Positions 5,408 to 23,473 of a DNA stretch of 23,473 bases are shown in pieces (the first letter of the stretch is position 1; every line of letters starts with the position of its first letter). The notes under the pieces are model-generated. The model did not search any database and was not told the DNA's origin. It saw nothing but the letters and a program-made list of their open reading frames with translations. The position numbers and the translations under genes were made by a program. The DNA is from an uncultured bacterium (GTDB lineage Bacteria; Babelota; Babeliae; Babelales; RVW-14), in the NCBI GenBank assembly GCA_963759805.1, contig CAVXAT010000016.1, positions 1 through 23,473 on the forward strand. The letters are read 5' to 3'.

Positions 5408-5423
5408 CAGCTGAGCCGCCCTT

Positions 5424-5657
5424 ATACCATTCTGTTGAATTAAAGTACCCAAGCTTGCCCGCTCCCAGCCGTCGCCTTCGCTTCGCTCATGGCTATGGCG
5501 GGCAGGCTGTGGTGAGTGTTTTTTGCAGGCCGCACCCTTCGATACGCGCACTGCGTGCGCACTCAGGGCGAGCGGCCAAAAAAAATGTACGTGGGCGTCG
5601 AAGCCTTGGCGAAGGCGGCTCGAACCATGCGGGCATAAGACTTACTTTGAATGGTAT
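5424..5657 (+). mobile_element. MITE-like palindromic element, copy A (234 bp)
   Basis: Terminal IR ataccattc (5424-5432) / gaatggtat (5649-5657). GC-rich multi-hairpin interior. Near-identical reverse-complement copies at 8566-8799 and from 23299. Confidence 0.88.
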
Positions 5658-6613
5658 TACTCCATTCTGATTACATTACTCTCAACTGCTTGCTGCTGCA
5701 TAAATGTCGAGTAGACTTTGCTGGCAAACGACCCAACATTTTCTGCAAAAGAGCGACTTTCCATACCATACTCTTCTTCGTCGCTTGAAGTCAGCATATG
5801 CAGAAGCCCTGAACCCTTTTTAGGGTGGATAAGTTTAACTTCAGTTTCGATTTTAGCCAGTTTCTTGATGACATCAATTCCATCCTGTAGTGTGCCAAGT
5901 TGGTCGATGAGCTTGAGTTCAAGAGCCTGTGTTCCGGTAAAGACTTTTCCATCTGCCCACTTTGAAAAATCCTTTTCGGATAAATTTCTACTTTGCGCAA
6001 CATCGGTTGCAAATTGAGTGTAGGTGTTATCAGATAATTTTTGTAAATATGTAATTTCGTCGCTTGAAGTGTCTTTAAGTGGGCTGCCTGCTGTTTTATA
6101 CTTACCGGACTGTATATAGTTGAATTTAATTTTCCATGAATTTAAAAGATCTTTTACGTTTGGAAGCTCAAGTATAACACCAACACTACCAATCAACGAT
6201 GATGGATTTGCGATGATTTTATCTGAAGATGCCGCAATGTAGTAAGCGCCTGATGCGCAGAGATTTTCTACGACAGTGACAACTGGTTTTTTCTTTTTAA
6301 ATTTCTTAAGTTCGGCAAAAATTGCTTGGGCTGAGCCGGGCATTCCTCCGGGTGAGTTGATTTTTAGAATCAAGCCTTTTATGTTGTCATCCTTTGAAAA
6401 AGCCTCAATTTTGTTAAGGTAATAACTTGAATCGTACAGAACGCCATCAATCTTGAGTAGGCCGACCTCCGTTTTGGGTCTTATTGCATCAACGATTGTT
6501 GTTTTAATGCTTGAAATTATTGTGGGAGCGATGCTTAAAAACAGAAGTACCATAAATAGATTTTTAATGTAGTAAAAAAAGGTGTCTGCTTTTTCATGTC
6601 GTGTGTTTTTCAT
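5657..6613 (-). CDS. sppA: Signal peptide peptidase SppA (S49, short type)
   Basis: INSPGG, CASGAYYIA, GSVGV, SGKYK, ADGKVFTGTQA and LIDQLG motifs; N-terminal TM segment. Confidence 0.95.
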   Translation of the reverse strand: MKNTRHEKADTFFYYIKNLFMVLLFLSIAPTIISSIKTTIVDAIRPKTEVGLLKIDGVLYDSSYYLNKIEAFSKDDNIKGLILKINSPGGMPGSAQAIFAELKKFKKKKPVVTVVENLCASGAYYIAASSDKIIANPSSLIGSVGVILELPNVKDLLNSWKIKFNYIQSGKYKTAGSPLKDTSSDEITYLQKLSDNTYTQFATDVAQSRNLSEKDFSKWADGKVFTGTQALELKLIDQLGTLQDGIDVIKKLAKIETEVKLIHPKKGSGLLHMLTSSDEEEYGMESRSFAENVGSFASKVYSTFMQQQAVESNVIRME

Positions 6614-7681: not shown

Positions 7682-8560
7682 TCAAATCCAGCACCCAATC
7701 CACCGCTTTTGGCCTTGCATATCCTTATATAATGCGAATTTCTTGAATTTATAAGCTTTTAAAGTGGTTTCTACCGTTTTTTGTGCCGGTCCGATTTCCA
7801 TAACTATCTGCGGTACGGGGGTGATCTTGTCAAGACTCGTCTTGTTAAGACTTGTCTTATTAAGAATATGGGGTGATTCTTTAAATATTCTGTGATAAAA
7901 GTACATCCCCTCATCTTTTGCCACTAGTGCCTGATGATCTTCCCATTCCCTGACATCAGGACTTAGTTGGTCAAGTTCTTGCTTTGCTAAGTACGGAGGG
8001 TTGCTAACTATCAAATCGCATCTAAAATCATGAGGTAATTTCTGGTATAGGTCAGAGTGTATAAACTCTATATTTTCAATTTTATTATGTGCTTTGTTTT
8101 CCAGGCTTAGATTTATGGCCTGCGTGTTAAGGTCTATCCCAATGATTTTTGATTTGGTAAATGCCTTTGCAAGTGCAAGTCCGATGCAGCCGGATCCGCA
8201 ACATAGGTCGATAGCGGTGAATTTTGTGAAATTTGCAATTTTTAGCTGATTAATCAACCAACTCACCCACTCTTCAGTCTCCGGCCTGGGGATCAGGACT
8301 GGTGGTTTTACCAGTATCTCCAAATTACAAAATGGAACACTGCCCAGAATGTAAGCAAGTGGTTTGTGATACTTAACGCGATCTGTAATCCATTGCTCGA
8401 GTTGAGCCTGCTGCGTGTCAGAGATATGTAGCTCCGAATTTGTAAGCAGCCATGTTTTGCTTTTATTAGTTAGTTTTTCGAGTAGCCACCAAGCCTCTTG
8501 TTCATCCTCAAGCCGTGTGGCTACCGTTTGAATCAATTTTAAAACGTTGATTTTATACAT
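7682..8560 (-). CDS. prmC: Release factor glutamine N5-methyltransferase PrmC/HemK
   Basis: PLAYILG, VLIPRPETE, DLCCGSGCI, VSNPPY and MEIG motifs. Confidence 0.96.
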   Translation of the reverse strand: MYKINVLKLIQTVATRLEDEQEAWWLLEKLTNKSKTWLLTNSELHISDTQQAQLEQWITDRVKYHKPLAYILGSVPFCNLEILVKPPVLIPRPETEEWVSWLINQLKIANFTKFTAIDLCCGSGCIGLALAKAFTKSKIIGIDLNTQAINLSLENKAHNKIENIEFIHSDLYQKLPHDFRCDLIVSNPPYLAKQELDQLSPDVREWEDHQALVAKDEGMYFYHRIFKESPHILNKTSLNKTSLDKITPVPQIVMEIGPAQKTVETTLKAYKFKKFALYKDMQGQKRWIGCWI

Positions 8561-8565
8561 GAATT

Positions 8566-8799
8566 ATACCATTCGAAGTAAATTTATGCCCGCATGGTTC
8601 GAGCCGCCTTCGCCAAGGCTTCGACGCCCACGTACATTTTTTTTGGCCGCTCGCCCTGAGTGCCGAGCTTTGCGAGGCGTATCGAAGGGTGCGGCCTGCA
8701 AAAAATACTCACCACAGCCTGCCCGCCATAGCCATGAGCGAAGCGAAGGCGACGGCTGGGAGCGGGCAAATTGGGTACATTAATTGCGCAGAATGGAAT
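8566..8799 (-). mobile_element. MITE-like palindromic element, copy B (234 bp), inverted relative to copy A
   Basis: ataccattc (8566-8574) ... gaatggaat (8791-8799). Aligns end to end with the reverse complement of copy A, except for one replaced hairpin and scattered substitutions. Confidence 0.88.
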
Positions 8800-9383
8800 T
8801 ACAGGCTATCAGTTGCTTTTATTATAGCATTCAAAGTTTCTGAGTACTTTATGATATTTTGAGCAAATTCAGTATATTTACATTCAAGTGATTTGAATTT
8901 CTTAACTGATAACATGGCCTTTTCAATTTTGGTTTTGACGAATTCCAGGGCTTCACCTTCCTGCGCAAGATCTTTTGCAAATGTCATTAAAGGTGATTTG
9001 ATGTTTGGATACTTTTCTTTGAATTTTTCTTTGAGCAGATTCAAGATGTTTTGTGCCTGGGAGAGTTCTTTGGCAAAACTTTCCTGTTTGCACCAGTAAA
9101 GATTGTTGAAAATAGCATTGATCTCTTTAATCTCATTTTCAAATGATTTTCGTTCTGCATCTGCGTTTAATGACGCAACATCTCGGCCGTTTATAAAAAT
9201 CTTGCTACCAATATTTTGGGTTTTTTCTAAAAATTCTTTAAATGATGTCTTAGGTCCATTTACAGCACTTTCGACTTTGCTTTTCAGTCGTTCAAGGCTG
9301 GGCATAATGTGTTTTGGACTTAAATTTGAAACTGTAAACATAAGACCACAAAAAATGGTAGAGCATATTAACTTTTTCTTCAT
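8799..9383 (-). CDS. Hypothetical secreted Lys/Glu-rich helical protein (194 aa)
   Basis: MKKKLICSTIFCGLMF signal-like start; AAGGA upstream. Confidence 0.75.
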   Translation of the reverse strand: MKKKLICSTIFCGLMFTVSNLSPKHIMPSLERLKSKVESAVNGPKTSFKEFLEKTQNIGSKIFINGRDVASLNADAERKSFENEIKEINAIFNNLYWCKQESFAKELSQAQNILNLLKEKFKEKYPNIKSPLMTFAKDLAQEGEALEFVKTKIEKAMLSVKKFKSLECKYTEFAQNIIKYSETLNAIIKATDSL

Positions 9384-9451: not shown

Positions 9452-10402
9452 TTATTCATAAAGCAATCCGTGAACATACTCTTTCGCATCAAATACTTTG
9501 ATATCTTCAAGCTTCTCTCCAAATGTTGTGTATAAGATTGGAATTTTAAACTGTTGCGTTATAGAAAAGACGATACCGCCTTTTCCGGTTCCGTCAAGTT
9601 TGGTTAGTATAATTCCGTTTATCTTTGTGGCCTGTTCAAAGAGTTCTGCCTGTTTTAGGGAGTTTTGTCCGATCATGGCGTCTACCGTGAGCCATGTACT
9701 GATATCATCTGCACAAATCTGGTCTGGAACTTGCTTATCAATTATTTTACGAATCTTTTCAAGCTCTTTCATTAAATTTACTTTGGTTTGAAGTCTGCCT
9801 GCCGTATCTATTATTATATGATCATAATTTTCATCTTTAAATGTTTTGCATGCATCAAAAATGACAGATGCAGGGTCTTGATTTTCGCGGCCAACAAACA
9901 CCGGTACGCCAATTTTTTTACCCCATTCCATCAGTTGCTGTGTAGCGGCAGCCCTGAAAGTATCTCCGGCCACAAGAATTACACGTTTGCCTTGCTGGTG
10001 CATTATGTTTGCGAGCTTTGCACTAAAAGTTGTTTTACCGCTGCCGTTAATTCCAACCAGCAAGGTGATTTTTGGTAACAGATTAACTGTTATGGGTCTG
10101 TTTGATTTTTCGACTGAGGTTTGTGATGGCAAGAGTTGAGATAACAACAGTTGCGATAACAATAATTGTTCAAGTGCTGTTTTTACGTCATTAATATCTT
10201 TGATTTTTGCCGAGCTAATATCAGCTTTGAGTTGTGTAATTATGGCATCTGTTGTTTTGGAGCCGGTATCTGCTGAAATAAGCAGGACAGAGAGCTCTTT
10301 TAGTAACTGTTCATCAAGCTTATTTCGTGAGAAAATCGTGCTGATTTGGCTTGTAAATGTACTGTATATTTTTTTAAATTTGTCTTTTATAAAACCGAAC
10401 AT
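9452..10402 (-). CDS. ftsY: Signal recognition particle receptor FtsY (NG domain only)
   Basis: GINGSGKTT, DTFRAAA, DTAGR, TKLDGTGKGG and GEKLED motifs. Confidence 0.97.
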   Translation of the reverse strand: MFGFIKDKFKKIYSTFTSQISTIFSRNKLDEQLLKELSVLLISADTGSKTTDAIITQLKADISSAKIKDINDVKTALEQLLLSQLLLSQLLPSQTSVEKSNRPITVNLLPKITLLVGINGSGKTTFSAKLANIMHQQGKRVILVAGDTFRAAATQQLMEWGKKIGVPVFVGRENQDPASVIFDACKTFKDENYDHIIIDTAGRLQTKVNLMKELEKIRKIIDKQVPDQICADDISTWLTVDAMIGQNSLKQAELFEQATKINGIILTKLDGTGKGGIVFSITQQFKIPILYTTFGEKLEDIKVFDAKEYVHGLLYE

Positions 10403-12106: not shown

Positions 12107-13147
12107 ATGGACATACTTTCGTTGCTCAAGCAGAGCATGGGGGCGGATGCATCAATGGTATGGATTTTGCTACTCTCATTTTTGTCGGGAGTGCTTATAA
12201 GTTTTACACCATGCATTTATCCAATGATTCCAATAACCATCGGAATCATGCAGACTCAGGCAACGCATTCATTCTGGCGTGGATTATTAACCGGATTTTT
12301 TTATGTTTTGGGATTAGCAACGGTTTATGCAACACTTGGTTTTATCTGTGCAACCACTTCGGTAATGTTTGGGCAGTGGACCTCAAACCCATGGTTTACG
12401 CTTTTTATTGTACTTTTGTTTTTGTATCTTGCTTTCTCTCTGTTTGGTTTTTATGAGATCACGATTCCGGCATTTTTCAAGTTCAAAACACAGGATGATC
12501 CTTCGATACGATTTGCTACGCAAATCACTCAGGATGAGCGGGAAGGGAGTAGGCGCGCTCGTGGTTCCTTCGACGGGCTCAGGATGAGCGGCTTACTTGC
12601 CTGGGCGCCGAAGCCTTGGCGAAGGCGGCTCGAACCATCGCCCATAGGGCGACGCGCCGTGGCTCAAGCAAAGCCTGCTAGCCGGCCATTTTTAAAAAGT
12701 TTTTTACTGGGGCTTTTCGCTGGTTCAGTTGCCTCCCCTTGCCTAACTCCTGCCTTGGCCATGCTTTTGGCATTGGTAGCAGAAAAAGGCAACCCCTTAC
12801 TTGGTTTCTTTGCACTGTTTCTCTTTGCATTTGGAATGGGTTTCTTATTGATATTTGTCGGAATGTTTTCAGCATCAATTAATGCATTCCCTCGTGCAGG
12901 TGAGTGGATGAATGAGGTTAAAAAGTTTTTTGGGTTTGTGATGCTTGCCGCTTGTGTTTATATGTCTCGAAATGTACTTTGGTTGCCGATTATTAAAGGC
13001 CTTTATGCTCTAGTTTGTGCAAGTGCCTCAATTTACTATTTTTACACGGGTTACTATTTTGAAACCGGATTGGGTAAAAAGATTAAATGGTTTTTGGGGC
13101 TATGTTTTGCTGTTATCACGGTATATTTGCTTGTAAAAGTTTTATGA
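12107..13147 (+). CDS. DsbD beta-domain / CcdA-like transmembrane thiol-disulfide electron transporter with an in-frame palindromic insertion
   Basis: FTPCIYPMIP and VASPC redox cysteines, PRAGEWMNEVKKFFG motif, multiple TM helices and AAGGAG RBS. No thioredoxin domain. Confidence 0.88.
   Translation: MDILSLLKQSMGADASMVWILLLSFLSGVLISFTPCIYPMIPITIGIMQTQATHSFWRGLLTGFFYVLGLATVYATLGFICATTSVMFGQWTSNPWFTLFIVLLFLYLAFSLFGFYEITIPAFFKFKTQDDPSIRFATQITQDEREGSRRARGSFDGLRMSGLLAWAPKPWRRRLEPSPIGRRAVAQAKPASRPFLKSFLLGLFAGSVASPCLTPALAMLLALVAEKGNPLLGFFALFLFAFGMGFLLIFVGMFSASINAFPRAGEWMNEVKKFFGFVMLAACVYMSRNVLWLPIIKGLYALVCASASIYYFYTGYYFETGLGKKIKWFLGLCFAVITVYLLVKVL
12497..12687 (+). repeat. GC-rich palindromic insert related to the MITE, in frame within the dsbD/ccdA-like gene
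   Basis: 12602-12638 is identical over 37 bp to the reverse complement of copy C. It also contains ccttcgatac-hairpin-actcagg and ccttcgacgggctcaggatgagcgg modules. Boundaries are approximate. Confidence 0.85.
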
Positions 13148-15137: not shown

Positions 15138-16640
15138 TTAGAATGACAAGGAGAGCTTGCCCCATACCATCCAGTAGTTTGGTATGCTGTTCTCATTTGC
15201 CCAGTCATATTTTCCACCTACACCCAACAAGAGAGGATCTTTCCATTTCTTGAAGTGGTAGCCCAAACCGCCATAGATGCCGTTTGTGAATTGTGATGGA
15301 GTTTCTGCTTTCTCTATGTCAATGCTGTCGTTTGTGAGCCAATTTCCCTCAAGCAAAGGCGAGGAAGGGTTGCGATCAATGCCTGTAACATCGAATTCTA
15401 TTGGAGTCTCGTAATCATATTCATCCGCTGTCAACCAATCTCTTGCTGCTACTCCGAATGTATCGTGTGGAAGTGAGTGCTTGAGGCTTAGATCTTCATC
15501 TTCTCTGTAATACATATTGTAACCAAGGTCTGCACTGAATCCGCCATTGTTGTAAGCCAGTGCAAGGATACCATCAAATTGGCTGCCTGGGGTTACATTA
15601 ACGCCAAGTGGTGTCAATATGTTAACTGCAGGAATCAAGTCTACGTGTCCATCTTTGCCCAGCAAGACATATGGTGATGCATAACCCTTCAATTTTAGAG
15701 GTCTGTGCTCAGATGATTCGAACAGATAACGGTAGTTAGCTGCAAAGTTCAATTTGATATTTTGTTTGCCTTTGGTCCACAAGTTTGCATGTGCATCAAG
15801 TCCGCCACCAAATCCGAAGTGGGAGCCGTTGCCGTATATTGGTTCAAACATCTCTCTGCCGTTTGGCTTGTTGCCTGTTGGGATTGTTATTGCAAGGTTG
15901 ATACCGAAATGGTACTTATCTTTGTACAAGAACTTGTAACCAAGAATTACGTCGACGTCTGCAAACCCTGTCGCTGAATGTTCGTCTTTTATTAAACCAT
16001 AGTCAAGGGCAACTTGAGCGTCATTTGGAAATTCACCGTTGGTTGTCTGAAAATAATGACCGGTGAAGAACTCTGTTAACCAGGTTTCGTAATCTTCTGG
16101 TGTGTATCCTCCCTCAGAACCCTGAATACCCTCGACGTTCAACTCCATATCATTTTCTACGCGAACAACTGTTGTGTTTACCTTGAGGTAAAGACCCTTT
16201 AGAAGTTTGTCCATGTTTTGGTAGTAATCAAAACGTGCGCCGTATGATTTTGAGCTTGGATCTAATGATACAGTTGCGATTGCGCCTTCATCTCCACCTA
16301 GAGAACCGTGGAGTATATACCCAAGATCGAAATCATCCTTTTCTGTTGATTTTGTATTAGCGATAGGGTCGCCTTTTAATCTATATGTGCTGTCGCCGTT
16401 AATACCAAAGTAACTACCGAAATTACCGTTTGATTCCCCATAGAAACCGGATATTTGTAAATTTCCACCGAAACGGTGTTCCAACTTGAGTTGTGTTCTC
16501 TCATAGAATGTTGTGAGTTCCATTGGAAGATTTACGTTTGTACTACGTAAGTTCATGTATGTGTGTTCTGTGTGTGCCGAGATGTTATTTGCGCTTACTG
16601 CCAATGCAGCAAGCATTAGATATTTTATTGATTTATTCAT
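15138..16640 (-). CDS. Putative outer-membrane beta-barrel protein, paralog 1 (500 aa)
   Basis: Signal peptide, Gly/aromatic alternating strands and C-terminal WGKLSLSF beta-signal; GGAG...AAGG upstream. Confidence 0.8.
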   Translation of the reverse strand: MNKSIKYLMLAALAVSANNISAHTEHTYMNLRSTNVNLPMELTTFYERTQLKLEHRFGGNLQISGFYGESNGNFGSYFGINGDSTYRLKGDPIANTKSTEKDDFDLGYILHGSLGGDEGAIATVSLDPSSKSYGARFDYYQNMDKLLKGLYLKVNTTVVRVENDMELNVEGIQGSEGGYTPEDYETWLTEFFTGHYFQTTNGEFPNDAQVALDYGLIKDEHSATGFADVDVILGYKFLYKDKYHFGINLAITIPTGNKPNGREMFEPIYGNGSHFGFGGGLDAHANLWTKGKQNIKLNFAANYRYLFESSEHRPLKLKGYASPYVLLGKDGHVDLIPAVNILTPLGVNVTPGSQFDGILALAYNNGGFSADLGYNMYYREDEDLSLKHSLPHDTFGVAARDWLTADEYDYETPIEFDVTGIDRNPSSPLLEGNWLTNDSIDIEKAETPSQFTNGIYGGLGYHFKKWKDPLLLGVGGKYDWANENSIPNYWMVWGKLSLSF

Positions 16641-16953: not shown

Positions 16954-18402
16954 TTAGAATGACAGGGAGAGTTTGCCCCATACCATCCAGGAGTTTGGTA
17001 TGCTGTTCTCATTTGCCCAATCATATTTTCCACCAATACCCATCAAGAAAGGATATTCCCATTTCTTGAAGTGGTAGCCCAAACCGCCGTAGATGCCGTT
17101 TGTGAGTTGTGATGGAGTTGCTGCTGCATCTTCATCAACGTCTTTTCTTGAGATCCAGGCAGTTTCCTCACCATCGAAGTCGATTGGGTTTGTACCGAAA
17201 GTATAGTTTTCTAAATTAGTTCTATAAAATACTGATGCTACACCAAATCTGTCTTCTTCAATTTTGCCTCTGAAGTCAACATCCTCTTCATCTCTGTAGT
17301 AAAGGTTGTAACCTAGGTCTGCACTGAATCCGCCGTTGTTATAAGCTAATGCCAAAATACCATCAAATTGGCTGCCTGGTGTTACATCAACACCATTGTG
17401 TGACAAAACATTAACTGCAGGTATCAATGGCGCATTTACAGTGGAGCTATCGCCCAAAAGAACGTAAGGGGATAGATAATCCTTCAACTTAAGAGGTCTG
17501 TGCTCAGATGCTTCGAACAGATAACGGTAGTTAGCTGCAAAGTTCAATTTGATGTTTTGTTCGTGTTTGGTCCACAGGTTTGCATGTGCATCAAGTCCGC
17601 CACCAAATCCGAAGTGGGAGCCGTTGCCGTATATTGGTTCAAACAGTAGTTTACCATCTGGTTCTTCGCCTGTTGGGATTGTGATTGCAATGTTGATACC
17701 GAAGTGGTACTTGTCTTTGTACAAGAACTTGTAACCAAGAATTACATCGATATCAGCAAGACCTGTTTCGTTGTGCTCGCCTTTAATTAAACCACGTTCA
17801 ACTTCTTCTTGTGCATTACCTGGATCTGTAGCATTTGTTTGTTCATATTTGCCGGTGAAAAATTTATAAAGGTTTGTTTGCATTGCTGAGTCGGAACTAT
17901 GTACGCCCAAATCCATATCATTTTCTACACAAACGATCGTTGTGTTTACCTTGAGGTAGAGACCCTTTAGAAGTTTGTCCATGTTCTGGTAGTAATCAAA
18001 ACGTGCGCCGTATGATTCGGTTTCTGGATTGTATGAAACTTTTGCTGGGGTATCTTCGATCTCATGAGCCCAATCGTGAATCAAATAACGTAAAACAGTG
18101 TCGGCTGTTGCTGGAGTTGCATCACGTTGTGCTGCTGTGCCTAGTATATATGTGCTGTCACCATTCATACCAAAATAGCTGCCGAAATTACCGTTTGATT
18201 CTCCGTAGAAACCAGATACTTGTAAATTTCCACCAAAACGGTGGTCCAACTTCATTTGTGTTCTCTCATAGAATGTTGTAAGTTCCATTGGAAGATTTAC
18301 ATTGGAGCTTTTCAAGTTCATATATGTGTGGTCTGAGTGTGCCGAGATGTTTGAACTTACTGCCATTGCAGCAAGCGCTAGATATTTTATTGATTTATTC
18401 AT
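16954..18402 (-). CDS. Putative outer-membrane beta-barrel protein, paralog 2 (482 aa)
   Basis: Long blocks identical to paralog 1 (e.g. EPIYGNGSHFGFGGGLDAHANLWTK), the same MNKSIKYL start and the same WGKLSLSF end. Confidence 0.8.
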   Translation of the reverse strand: MNKSIKYLALAAMAVSSNISAHSDHTYMNLKSSNVNLPMELTTFYERTQMKLDHRFGGNLQVSGFYGESNGNFGSYFGMNGDSTYILGTAAQRDATPATADTVLRYLIHDWAHEIEDTPAKVSYNPETESYGARFDYYQNMDKLLKGLYLKVNTTIVCVENDMDLGVHSSDSAMQTNLYKFFTGKYEQTNATDPGNAQEEVERGLIKGEHNETGLADIDVILGYKFLYKDKYHFGINIAITIPTGEEPDGKLLFEPIYGNGSHFGFGGGLDAHANLWTKHEQNIKLNFAANYRYLFEASEHRPLKLKDYLSPYVLLGDSSTVNAPLIPAVNVLSHNGVDVTPGSQFDGILALAYNNGGFSADLGYNLYYRDEEDVDFRGKIEEDRFGVASVFYRTNLENYTFGTNPIDFDGEETAWISRKDVDEDAAATPSQLTNGIYGGLGYHFKKWEYPFLMGIGGKYDWANENSIPNSWMVWGKLSLSF

Positions 18403-19134: not shown

Positions 19135-19440
19135 CTATTGTTCTTTCGTTGCATGGGCTTCTGCTTGTGGCTGTTGCACCTCTTGCTGTTTTGCTTTGGT
19201 TTTTTGAACCTTGACTGCCTCTGCTTTCGCTTTGGCTTGTGCTGCTGCTTTTTTTGCAGAATCTAACTGTGGCTTAAGTATATCAATTTCTTTATTTATA
19301 GAGTCTTCTTCATCAGGGGCCATAGCTTTCCGGCGGTTTAAAACCGCTATCTTCGACTTTAGCTGTTGGAATTCATTTTCCAGTTTTATGGCATCTTGTT
19401 CTTCAGGGGATTTATTGGCAAATTCTACAAATTGTTTTGC
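19135..19440 (-). CDS. Frameshifted C-terminal continuation (~101 aa, coiled-coil-like) of the proline-rich WH2 protein
   Basis: Frame open across 19440 to the stop at 19135 (AKQFVEFANKSPEEQDAIKLENEFQQLKSK...MAPDEED...TKEQ), with the same Ala/Lys/Glu composition as the upstream ORF. Confidence 0.75.
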   Translation of the reverse strand, partial: AKQFVEFANKSPEEQDAIKLENEFQQLKSKIAVLNRRKAMAPDEEDSINKEIDILKPQLDSAKKAAAQAKAKAEAVKVQKTKAKQQEVQQPQAEAHATKEQ

Positions 19441-21733
19441 TTTTTTCTTCTTCTATTTCTGCTGGTGTTGCAAGTTTTGCTTTTTTTCTTTCTTCTTCTG
19501 CTACTGCTTTTATGGGAGCCCCTTCTCCTGTTGCCGCAGTAAGAGTCCATGCTTTTTCATCGGGCCCATTTGCTTCTGCTTTTGTTGCCGCTGGCTCTGC
19601 TGGTGTTGTTCCCGATTGCTTAAAAGCACCTCTCAAAATATCGGTTAGGCTACGTCCTTCTAGCCCAGCCTTTTCAGCTTGTTCTTGAGTAAGGGGGGCG
19701 GGTTTGCGTTTCCCAACCGGTCGAAGTTTTTTCCCACTTTGTATCTCCGCCATCAGGTCGGGCCGCTCAGTTCCACTAGGTAGTTGCGATGGTTTTTTTG
19801 CAGTACCTTCTTCAGTGACAGTCTCTGCAGTTCCTTTAGGCTTCCAATTTGCTGGTGGCAATGGTGGTGGTGGAGTGGTAGCTTGTGCAGTTTCCTCTGC
19901 GGTAGTCGGTGTAGCAGCTTCAACAGATTTTGCCGTTGGTTCGGCAACCGGTGTTGTGGATGGTTTGGCCGCTACGGGAGTGGCAGCGATTTCTGCAGGT
20001 TTTGCAGCTTCAGCGGTAGGTTTGGGTTTAGCACCCCATTCTGGCATTGGAGGTGGTGGTGTGGTGGATTCTGTGCTTGGTCTAATTGTCTTAATCGTTT
20101 GAAGGGCTGTCCTAGAAGTTTCAATTGTCAATTCTAACTTCCCAACCAGAGTCATAAGCTCCCCATTGTATTTTTTTGAGATGGCGGTTCTTCGTGTAAG
20201 AATTTTCTGCATTTCTGGAGTTAATGCTTTAGTTTGGGGATGGGCGTTAAATTCTTCTATTCCAGGAATTTTAGCTATTTCAGCGTCGATTAATTTTTGG
20301 TTTTGCTCGATTTTTGTGTTAAGTTCAATCAGTGTAGCCTCTTTCCCTTTCAAGTCTTCTTCCATGCTTTTGATAGTAGGCGCATCTAGTCCTGTAACAA
20401 CTTTCTGACGTTCGGCTGTTAGTTCGGCTATTTTTTTAGTGGCAGCATCAAGATCTCCTTTTGCCACTGATGCATCAGCTAATCTTTTTTTATCCGCTTC
20501 ATAACCTTTTTTCACTTCTTGCTTATTTGCCAGTTCGCTTGTCCATCTGGCCATATCGCTATCAAAACCTGGTATAGCCCGTCTAGCAAACTCTAAATCA
20601 GTTTTTGCTTTTTGATATTCGGCTGAACTTCTACCAAATTTTGCAGCGGCTTCTGCTGCTTCTAATTGAGGCTTAATTTGAGCTCTTAAGCCATCTATTC
20701 GTGCTTGTAGCTTAGATGTATCCATATCAGTCGACCGACTCATCATTTCTAGGAATTCGACACCAACTTTTGGAGTAGCGGCTATCTGTGCTTTTAATTG
20801 TTTTGCTTTTTCTTTTTCTTGTGCTAAAGAATCACCTAATCCAATTAATTTTGTTTTGACGGTGCCGACAACAACTTCAACGTCCTTCTTTTTTGCGGTC
20901 TCTTCCTTCTCTGCGGCCGTCCTTTTAGGAGCAGGAGGCAGTGGAGTCGATGGAACAGCATATTTAACAGTAGGTTTCTCAGGTTCTTCAGCAGGAATAG
21001 CTGGTGCGGGCCTGTGTGGGGTTGTAGCAGGTTCAGTGCGTTTGGGAGCGGGCGGTGGAGGCACTGGGTGAGTAGGAAGAATATGAGCAGGTTTAGCCGC
21101 AACAGCTTCAACAGGTTCTACTGCTGTTCCAGGTTTATTCGTTCTATCTACAGCAGGCGGAGGCGGTGCGGGCGGTGCATGATGAGGAGGAATATGTGTA
21201 GCAGGAACAGGTTGTCCAGCCCCTGGTTGTAATTCCATAAATCTCTTTCCTATTTCCAATGTTTTAAACTTGCTTTTTAGATCCGGGGCTTCTAGTGTCC
21301 CCTTAATGAGTTCTTGCCAATGAGCTTGGGCGGCTGCGTGTTTAGCGGTGGCCTCTTTAACGGTAGGAACGGTAGGAGCAAGTCCAAAAACTGCTTTGAC
21401 TCTATCGAATGTAGAAGTTTGTTTCGCTTTAGTTATTCCAGCCAGAGTATCATTATGTTCTGTTAGTGCTTTATTGATTATGGATTCTAACTGGTTATGG
21501 TTAGGATCTTTTTTAACTTCAGTTATTAGATCTCGTGCTTGTTGGCGTGCTTCCTCCGGGGTTCTCACTTTGCCAATCCCCAAAGAGCTTTTTATTTTAC
21601 TGAAAGCTGATGGTTCTTCTTGTGGGGCTCTTCTTTCCTCTGTTGGGAATCTCCGTTCCTCCATTCCATAACAAAAGCTGCAAATCATTAAAGCGCTGAT
21701 TAAAAAAGATAGCCGTTTATTATTTTCACTCAT
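19412..21733 (-). CDS. Secreted proline-rich coiled-coil protein with a WH2 actin-binding motif (WASP/RickA-like effector candidate)
   Basis: ATG 21733 follows AAAGGA (track start 21772). Signal peptide, polyproline tracts, coiled coil and ERPDLMAEIQSGKKLRPV WH2 consensus. Confidence 0.75.
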   Translation of the reverse strand: MSENNKRLSFLISALMICSFCYGMEERRFPTEERRAPQEEPSAFSKIKSSLGIGKVRTPEEARQQARDLITEVKKDPNHNQLESIINKALTEHNDTLAGITKAKQTSTFDRVKAVFGLAPTVPTVKEATAKHAAAQAHWQELIKGTLEAPDLKSKFKTLEIGKRFMELQPGAGQPVPATHIPPHHAPPAPPPPAVDRTNKPGTAVEPVEAVAAKPAHILPTHPVPPPPAPKRTEPATTPHRPAPAIPAEEPEKPTVKYAVPSTPLPPAPKRTAAEKEETAKKKDVEVVVGTVKTKLIGLGDSLAQEKEKAKQLKAQIAATPKVGVEFLEMMSRSTDMDTSKLQARIDGLRAQIKPQLEAAEAAAKFGRSSAEYQKAKTDLEFARRAIPGFDSDMARWTSELANKQEVKKGYEADKKRLADASVAKGDLDAATKKIAELTAERQKVVTGLDAPTIKSMEEDLKGKEATLIELNTKIEQNQKLIDAEIAKIPGIEEFNAHPQTKALTPEMQKILTRRTAISKKYNGELMTLVGKLELTIETSRTALQTIKTIRPSTESTTPPPPMPEWGAKPKPTAEAAKPAEIAATPVAAKPSTTPVAEPTAKSVEAATPTTAEETAQATTPPPPLPPANWKPKGTAETVTEEGTAKKPSQLPSGTERPDLMAEIQSGKKLRPVGKRKPAPLTQEQAEKAGLEGRSLTDILRGAFKQSGTTPAEPAATKAEANGPDEKAWTLTAATGEGAPIKAVAEEERKKAKLATPAEIEEEKSKTICRICQ

Positions 21734-21821
21734 AAAAAACAGTCCTTTCACCTTTCTCCGCCAGACATACAAATTTTAACTGAATATTAAAATAAAAATT
21801 CTAGTATCCAAAAGTCAATAA

Positions 21822-23280: not shown

Positions 23281-23298
23281 TTTTTTCTTTCGGGGGTA

Positions 23299-23473
23299 AT
23301 ACCATTCAAAGTAAGTCTTATGCCCGCATGGTTCGAGCCGCCTTCGCCAAGGCTTCGGCGCCCAAGTACGTTTTTTTTGGCCGCTCGCCCTGAGTGCGCA
23401 CGCAGTGCGCGTATCGAAGGGTGCGGCCTGCAAAAAACACTTCCAGCCTCCGCGTAAAGCTACGGCGGACGCA
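23299..23473 (-). mobile_element. MITE-like palindromic element, copy C (truncated by the window end)
   Basis: Starts ataccattc. Nearly identical to the reverse complement of copy A up to about 23441, then carries a different hairpin module. Confidence 0.85.

Follow-up and report, generated by a model that had tools for sequence, protein, structure and literature searches.

Short palindromic repeats that sit in frame inside protein-coding genes are known from Rickettsia and from other genera (PMC10969869, PMC2229807, PMC3184786, PMC3733652). The Rickettsia palindromic elements (RPEs) and the intragenic GTAG/CGTC REPs are portrayed in these accounts as hairpin repeats of ~100–200 bp lying in frame in conserved genes (PMC10969869, PMC2229807, PMC3733652), and the repeat examined here, which interrupts a ccdA gene of an uncultured member of the Babelota, is of the same kind. 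As in the RPE examples described, its dimers and clusters encode tens of residues, and its hosts are similar, among them uvr genes, tRNA-modifying enzymes and synthetases. It differs from the RPEs, as they are reported there, in occurring in another phylum, in carrying no GTAG or CGTC tag at its arm ends, in forming at ccdA a nested mosaic of two families with no terminal inverted repeat, and in using, as a family, several reading frames and both orientations; in addition, the same loops are filled, and have been remodelled, in a non-sister species. A further parallel is offered by the Ssn nucleases and their NTS/SRM hairpins, in the description of which a single-domain GIY-YIG gene of ~95 aa lies between inverted, genome-scattered hairpins (PMC11893778). 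The REP/REPIN-RAYT (TnpA-REP) systems also resemble the present one in their inverted dimers of short palindromes, their mosaic clusters and their tie to a gene for a hairpin-recognising enzyme; however, the gene flanked by the present repeat encodes a GIY-YIG nuclease, and none of the five Y1_Tnp matches in the genome as assembled (88.7% complete) lies within ~4 kb of a catalogued cluster. In the literature searched, no paper was found that deals with this repeat, with repeats of the Babeliales or with a partner of UPF0213 type. Taken alone, the ccdA insert is one more case of the behaviour known from Rickettsia; what this locus adds is a staged, nested history and a set of shared, remodelled sites.

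The window analysed, a stretch of 23,473 nt, is contig C16 of a 1.5-Mb genome (designated G000, with contigs C1, C2, C6 and so on) whose nearest named homologues are Babeliales/Dependentiae proteins; relatives' genomes are designated G001, G002, G003, G007, G012, G034 and G040, and two relatives' CcdA proteins P0003 and P0010. The host gene (12107..13147, + strand) encodes a stand-alone DsbD transmembrane-domain protein of 346 aa and is the sole DsbD_TM gene found in the G000 assembly; the gene is single copy. Its identification as DsbD/CcdA-like in the original prediction agrees with the DsbD_TM/CcdA match and with the presence of both redox cysteines, Cys36 in a TPC motif (codon 12212..12214, + strand) and Cys212 in an SPC motif (12740..12742, + strand), which are intact, as is the open reading frame. 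We take the interrupted loop to be the linker between the two CcdA halves, presumably cytoplasmic as in the topology of Escherichia coli DsbD; this assignment follows the DsbD topology because fold searches gave no informative match for CcdA, and a PDB sequence search with the host protein gave no match. The loop contains 16 Lys/Arg residues compared with 0–2 in the other loops, which fits a cytoplasmic position. In the AlphaFold model, confidence is low over most of the insert, with pLDDT <50 at residues 155–178 and 180–186 and helices on both sides.

Repeat-derived sequence occupies 12491..12658 on the + strand (168 nt, codons 129–184), with a core at 12498–12658; its opening 7 nt correspond to the lead-in seen in composite copies at other loci and run over a conserved host Gln codon. 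On the same strand, the core opens with arm L1 and the inner hairpin of module A (12498..12541), which agrees at 43/44 nt with each of the arms that bracket the C1:266297 GIY-YIG gene. A 9-nt spacer (12542..12550) then leads to the 5' part of an inverted partner arm, R (12551..12565), inside which a second module-A arm, L2, is nested (12566..12591) with a junction that recurs in the intergenic copy C6:5540-5696. A linker and the hairpin of module B follow (12592..12628), the part common to MITE-like elements of the window and also found beside a second group of GIY-YIG genes, and the core ends at 12629..12658 with the 3' part of R, a tip hairpin and a closing stem whose pairing partner is the beginning of R. 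The insert is thus a nested mosaic of hairpin modules from two small repeat families, not one palindrome. Where the original prediction had an in-frame palindromic insert of about 60 codons at 12497..12687, the in-frame repeat itself is upheld at ~54–56 codons (from 12491 or 12498 to 12658), whereas 12659..12687 (+ strand) encodes host-like loop residues that are not repeat-derived, QAKPASRP being found also in the element-free protein P0010. The single palindrome does not survive either: folding of the whole region yields z scores of only −1.4 (RNA) and −1.8 (DNA) and a branched structure of nested modules, while L1 and the nested part of R fold at z −2.4 to −3.2, and L2 and B alone are not significant. 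At the ccdA insert, neither a single long stem-loop with terminal inverted repeats, by which RPEs are recognised, nor any terminal inverted repeat or target duplication was seen. The GC content of the insert is 0.62 against 0.40 for the remaining gene, and of its six frames only the coding frame is open.

The loop is far longer than in most of the family. Between the two sequence anchors named in the original prediction, 70 residues were counted, in agreement with the ~70 proposed, and, measured from LFGxYE to xPC, the loop of the G000 protein extends over 101 aa compared with a median of 42 aa among homologues (118 anchored of 120). In relatives' loci with an anchor match the span is 42–47 aa in 22/25 (30 examined), and in seven relatives with no match to the repeat-arm pattern it is 42–44 aa, so that no equally long loop was found in orthologues lacking the repeat. 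The proposition that the loop is normally short accordingly holds for the family but not for the nearest kin, since 11 close element-free relatives already have spans of 53–71 aa made of polar five-residue repeats. The loop is thus already long where the element is absent, and the net gain over these kin is 30–48 aa. A metagenome scan added, among close relatives, only a locus of the G002 type. As a separate observation, tandem duplications of 15 nt occur in the window in birA, prmC and ftsY (2677–2729, 7825–7865 and 10130–10162, respectively); this period is the commonest genome-wide (21 cases in G000, nine in G003) and is also seen in the ccdA loops of element-free kin, whose 15-nt microrepeats resemble the arm core by eye.

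The repeat family comprises 70 clusters in G000, against none in one shuffled control, and 25 of the 70 lie inside long open frames. Their host genes include alaS, mnmA, miaB, truA, uvrC, prs, tkt, gnd, gpmI and mevalonate kinases. Empty sites were taken from 1.43 Mb of G003, and a cluster counted as testable where the gene around it is a single open frame in G003, which left 16 intragenic clusters for comparison: the net length is a multiple of three in 15/16 and the frame is open in 14/16, the two exceptions being the weakest alignments (scores 49 and 74, versus at least 160 for the rest). The ccdA site itself failed the filter and stands outside these 16, although it aligns to G003 at the protein level. 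Elsewhere, a copy (C1:255749) replaces the end of an ABC-F-like ORF (C1:255729-257549), leaving it ~40 residues shorter than in G003. Frame keeping of this kind is predicted by translation and not needed by excision or bypass, and so appears to favour translation over excision; judged from sequence, the ccdA insert is likely translated and tolerated, like the Rickettsia repeats. The original prediction of an independent repeat family behaving like the RPEs is borne out by the in-frame inserts, the empty orthologous sites and the preserved frames at testable sites.

Modules A and B also ride in other vehicles. A MITE-like element of 236 bp with short terminal inverted repeats carries both (5423..5658, + strand), a second MITE-like copy of 236 bp lies further along (8565..8800, − strand), and a third, partial copy lies near the contig end, upstream of a Sua5/TsaC-family gene (23293..23441, − strand). 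This last copy lengthens the open frame of the Sua5/TsaC gene, whose G003 orthologue aligns only from ~23280. MITE-type copies also lie in frame in genes, adding 44–54 residues (C11:41434, C19:6507, C2:163495 and C4:70035; the hosts are phosphomevalonate kinase, a competence protein, gnd and one other), and copies at C1:336686-336846, C6:5540-5696, C11:96253-96377, C19:7568-7788 and C1:30857-30988 lie in inverted-repeat shells of a second type, which do not resemble the ends of the window MITEs. The ccdA insert had been thought to consist of MITE-related modules in the order of the MITE but without its terminal repeats. The shared core order (R 5' part, L, B, R 3' part) and the lack of a terminal repeat were confirmed, but derivation from the MITE was rejected, as the closest copies are not MITEs: local alignment scores are 169 to C6:5540-5696 and 102 to a copy on C19 versus 79–80 to the two window MITEs. 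The nested part is identical to the intergenic C6 copy at 90/97 nt, and only ~40 nt are closely shared between the insert and the window MITEs. Thus, while the window's 236-bp elements resemble MITEs of DDE-type insertion sequences in their short terminal inverted repeats and hold the same modules, such ends are missing from the ccdA insert, which is nearer to non-MITE copies, and the modules appear to be passengers common to both.

Both modules are associated with genes for small GIY-YIG nucleases, module A with a UPF0213-like type and module B with a second group. Two GIY-YIG genes of 97 aa in G000, one of them at C1:266297, are bracketed by inverted module-A arms; the closest solved relatives of this A-type protein are UPF0213 proteins, and it is 31% identical to another small GIY-YIG protein of G000, which we take to be SsnA-like. 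Arm A lies within 350 nt of 27/40 close GIY-YIG homologues and in the distal flanks of none of the 40; with our own and duplicate loci set aside, it is present at 25/37 close homologue loci, inverted on both sides in 17. It was found at 0/29 weaker GIY-YIG matches (three loci gave no hit) and at 10/14 named non-Dependentiae loci, and bracketed GIY-YIG genes occur in several phyla. Module B lies near 25/29 loci of the second group, presumably SLX1-like, compared with 3/29 in far flanks and with arm A near 0/29, by a loose pattern that was written after two of our own loci had been seen and that also matches 12/40 A-type loci. In G000, second-group genes with module-B hairpins lie directly downstream of tRNA genes (C18:49169-49348 and C5:3782-3976), the latter copy stopping after 65 codons. 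Across genomes the gene-repeat link is imperfect: the A-type gene is present in G000 (42 arms) and G002 (16), weakly matched in G003 (4) and not found in G001 (0), but the nuclease query drew a blank in G040 (17) and G034 (6) and gave no more than weak hits in G012 (38).

The system differs from Ssn, as the latter is described, in three respects (PMC11893778). The insert fails the SRM pattern with 0–3 substitutions, a strict comparison since the genome's own SsnA-type repeat also fails the exact pattern; NTS is reported as intragenic in 2% of cases versus 25/70 present clusters in long open frames; and the A-type partner is nearest to UPF0213, the genome's SsnA-like gene having a different repeat. 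That SsnA-like gene (C1:132934-133233) is bracketed by a third hairpin repeat, abundant in the genome and inverted from one side to the other, and three nuclease/hairpin pairs are found together in this one small genome.

Six loops (in ccdA, uvrC, mnmA, fcl, mvk and nurA) are filled in G000 and in G002 and empty in G003, although G002 is sister to G003 and not to G000, as indicated by 127/144 genes and by quartets of 86:23:13 (with G001) and 36:11:16 (with G007). The ccdA gene alone carries no signal on this sisterhood, and a single clade of element-bearing CcdA proteins is weakly rejected (p-AU 0.035). Apart from ccdA, the filled genes of G000 are uvrC (C2:140769-142586), mnmA (C2:87388-88713), fcl (C8:62361-63737), mvk (C11:95264-96535) and a nurA-like gene (C2:96077-97420). 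By scoring, 4/12 covered G000 sites are filled in G002 (ccdA, uvrC, mnmA and fcl), with mvk added by eye and nurA via a targeted locus; G002 coverage is 730 kb, about half, and these counts are partial. In G003, none of 21 G000 sites is filled. From 362 kb of G002, ccdA had at first seemed to be the sole shared site, an impression that the additional sequence overturned. At ccdA of G002, L1, the spacer and the beginning of R are present at the same nucleotide as in G000 and differ at 5/61 bases, compared with 45% at four-fold sites; the spacer keeps its length with 3/9 bases different. P0003 carries a longer hairpin variant in the ccdA loop, and this variant is found elsewhere in G002. The uvrC copies differ at 7/149 nt and by an added 36-nt module that keeps the frame, the fcl contents differ in nesting, and the mnmA copies are in opposite orientation. 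Modules were later nested or collapsed at occupied sites. In G003 the loops are of outgroup length at mnmA and fcl and 10–26 aa longer than in G001 at ccdA, uvrC and nurA. A co-converted flank was not found at ccdA (the G000=G002 pattern is seen at 8/36 sites versus a background of 0.27) and was seen only 3' of the uvrC site (22/27 informative sites). The same arm sequences are found in the repeat pools of G000 and G002, and the resemblance at shared sites can therefore be accounted for by conversion between copies.

The explanation that we consider probable is that the insert, an in-frame nested mosaic, is likely translated into a floppy loop that the protein tolerates, and that it was likely placed by nick-and-repair started by small GIY-YIG nucleases that recognise the hairpins. 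By analogy to Ssn, the small nucleases would bind the hairpins as single-stranded DNA and cut nearby, repair might then patch a repeat copy in at ragged junctions without target duplication, and selection would retain only frame-preserving insertions in permissive loops, here the CcdA linker. In Rickettsia, gmk is a reported case of an enzyme that is translated with its RPE (PMC2229807), and Ssn mobility is itself presented only as a hypothesis (PMC11893778). That the insert is instead cut out of the transcript or bypassed during translation to give a short-loop protein, an outcome allowed for in the original prediction, is very unlikely: the modules do fold into hairpins and 56 additional residues in a membrane protein could be costly, but there is no in-frame stop codon to skip, an Rfam search (E up to 1) found nothing at the insert and no group I/II intron (two sub-threshold matches lie elsewhere in the window), and frames are kept genome-wide and in secondary insertions such as that of uvrC. 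Known inteins are far longer than this insert. That the nested right half is a product of the assembly, formed by the joining of paths through repeats, seems at least as improbable; the same junction at C6 would permit it, but the two differ at 7/97 bases, the frame is kept, and the left half lies at the same place in G002 and P0003. From two DNA read runs (share 0.06) came nothing that crosses the insert site, only short fragments of other organisms. Less easily set aside, yet still unlikely, is the proposal that the translated and tolerated insert goes back to a DDE-transposase MITE that has since lost its ends, with the GIY-YIG genes as mere passengers or targets of the hairpins. Many copies lie inside inverted-repeat shells and could thus be moved by a DDE transposase; both modules travel in MITE-like elements that have terminal repeats and enter genes in frame, and the genome holds 14 DDE_Tnp_1 matches. 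However, ccdA shows no shell, terminal repeat or duplication, no transposase with ends matching either shell was found in G000 (the terminal repeats around two transposase types differ from both shells, and none were found around the other two types), and the arms bracket GIY-YIG genes in several phyla.

A serious though less probable contender, compatible with translation, concerns the age of the insert, which would be younger than the species split if the filled allele had spread sideways between co-occurring lineages or if the same loops had been re-targeted in homing-like fashion. The distribution speaks for it, in that G002 shares the ccdA and uvrC elements of G000 despite its kinship with G003, as do the outgroup-length G003 loops, the inverted mnmA copies and the failure of the element-bearing CcdA proteins to form one clade. 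The absent co-converted flank at ccdA, the lengthened G003 loops, as expected of relics of an old insertion, and the common arm pools speak against it. Two histories stand about level, an old insertion that conversion kept fresh and that G003 lost, and lateral spread of filled alleles; repeated targeting of the same loops ranks below both. To the favoured reading of nuclease-started nick-and-repair may be joined a bolder one, which we regard as rather doubtful: the inserts would be anything but frozen relics, and two undescribed GIY-YIG/hairpin pairs, one UPF0213-like and the other presumably SLX1-like, would maintain particular protein loops as landing pads, which are cut again, nested anew, inverted and copied from one species to another, and which decay once the nuclease is lost. 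If true, this would constitute a homing-like system in miniature, one that keeps rewriting a fixed set of loops in housekeeping proteins for as long as its nuclease is present.

How RPE-type repeats enter genes has been an open question since 2000. Here the hairpin is defined and a protein of 97 residues is a concrete candidate for the enzyme, so that mobilisation becomes testable in vitro, and a positive outcome would extend Ssn-type ssDNA nucleases to another branch of the GIY-YIG family. The filled, remodelled and empty alleles of three related genomes also make the life history of an intragenic repeat traceable. The window holds further features of its own. Tandem duplicated genes (15138–16640 and 16954–18402) encode proteins of 500 and 482 aa that end in Phe and are likely outer-membrane proteins; the 500-aa protein has no Pfam match, and an identical 41-nt hairpin follows each duplicate gene. 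Beyond them, 19412–21772 encodes a Pro/Ala-rich protein of 786 aa, also with no Pfam match and possibly host-directed, whose short C-terminal motif, in our estimation, resembles the actin-binding WH2.
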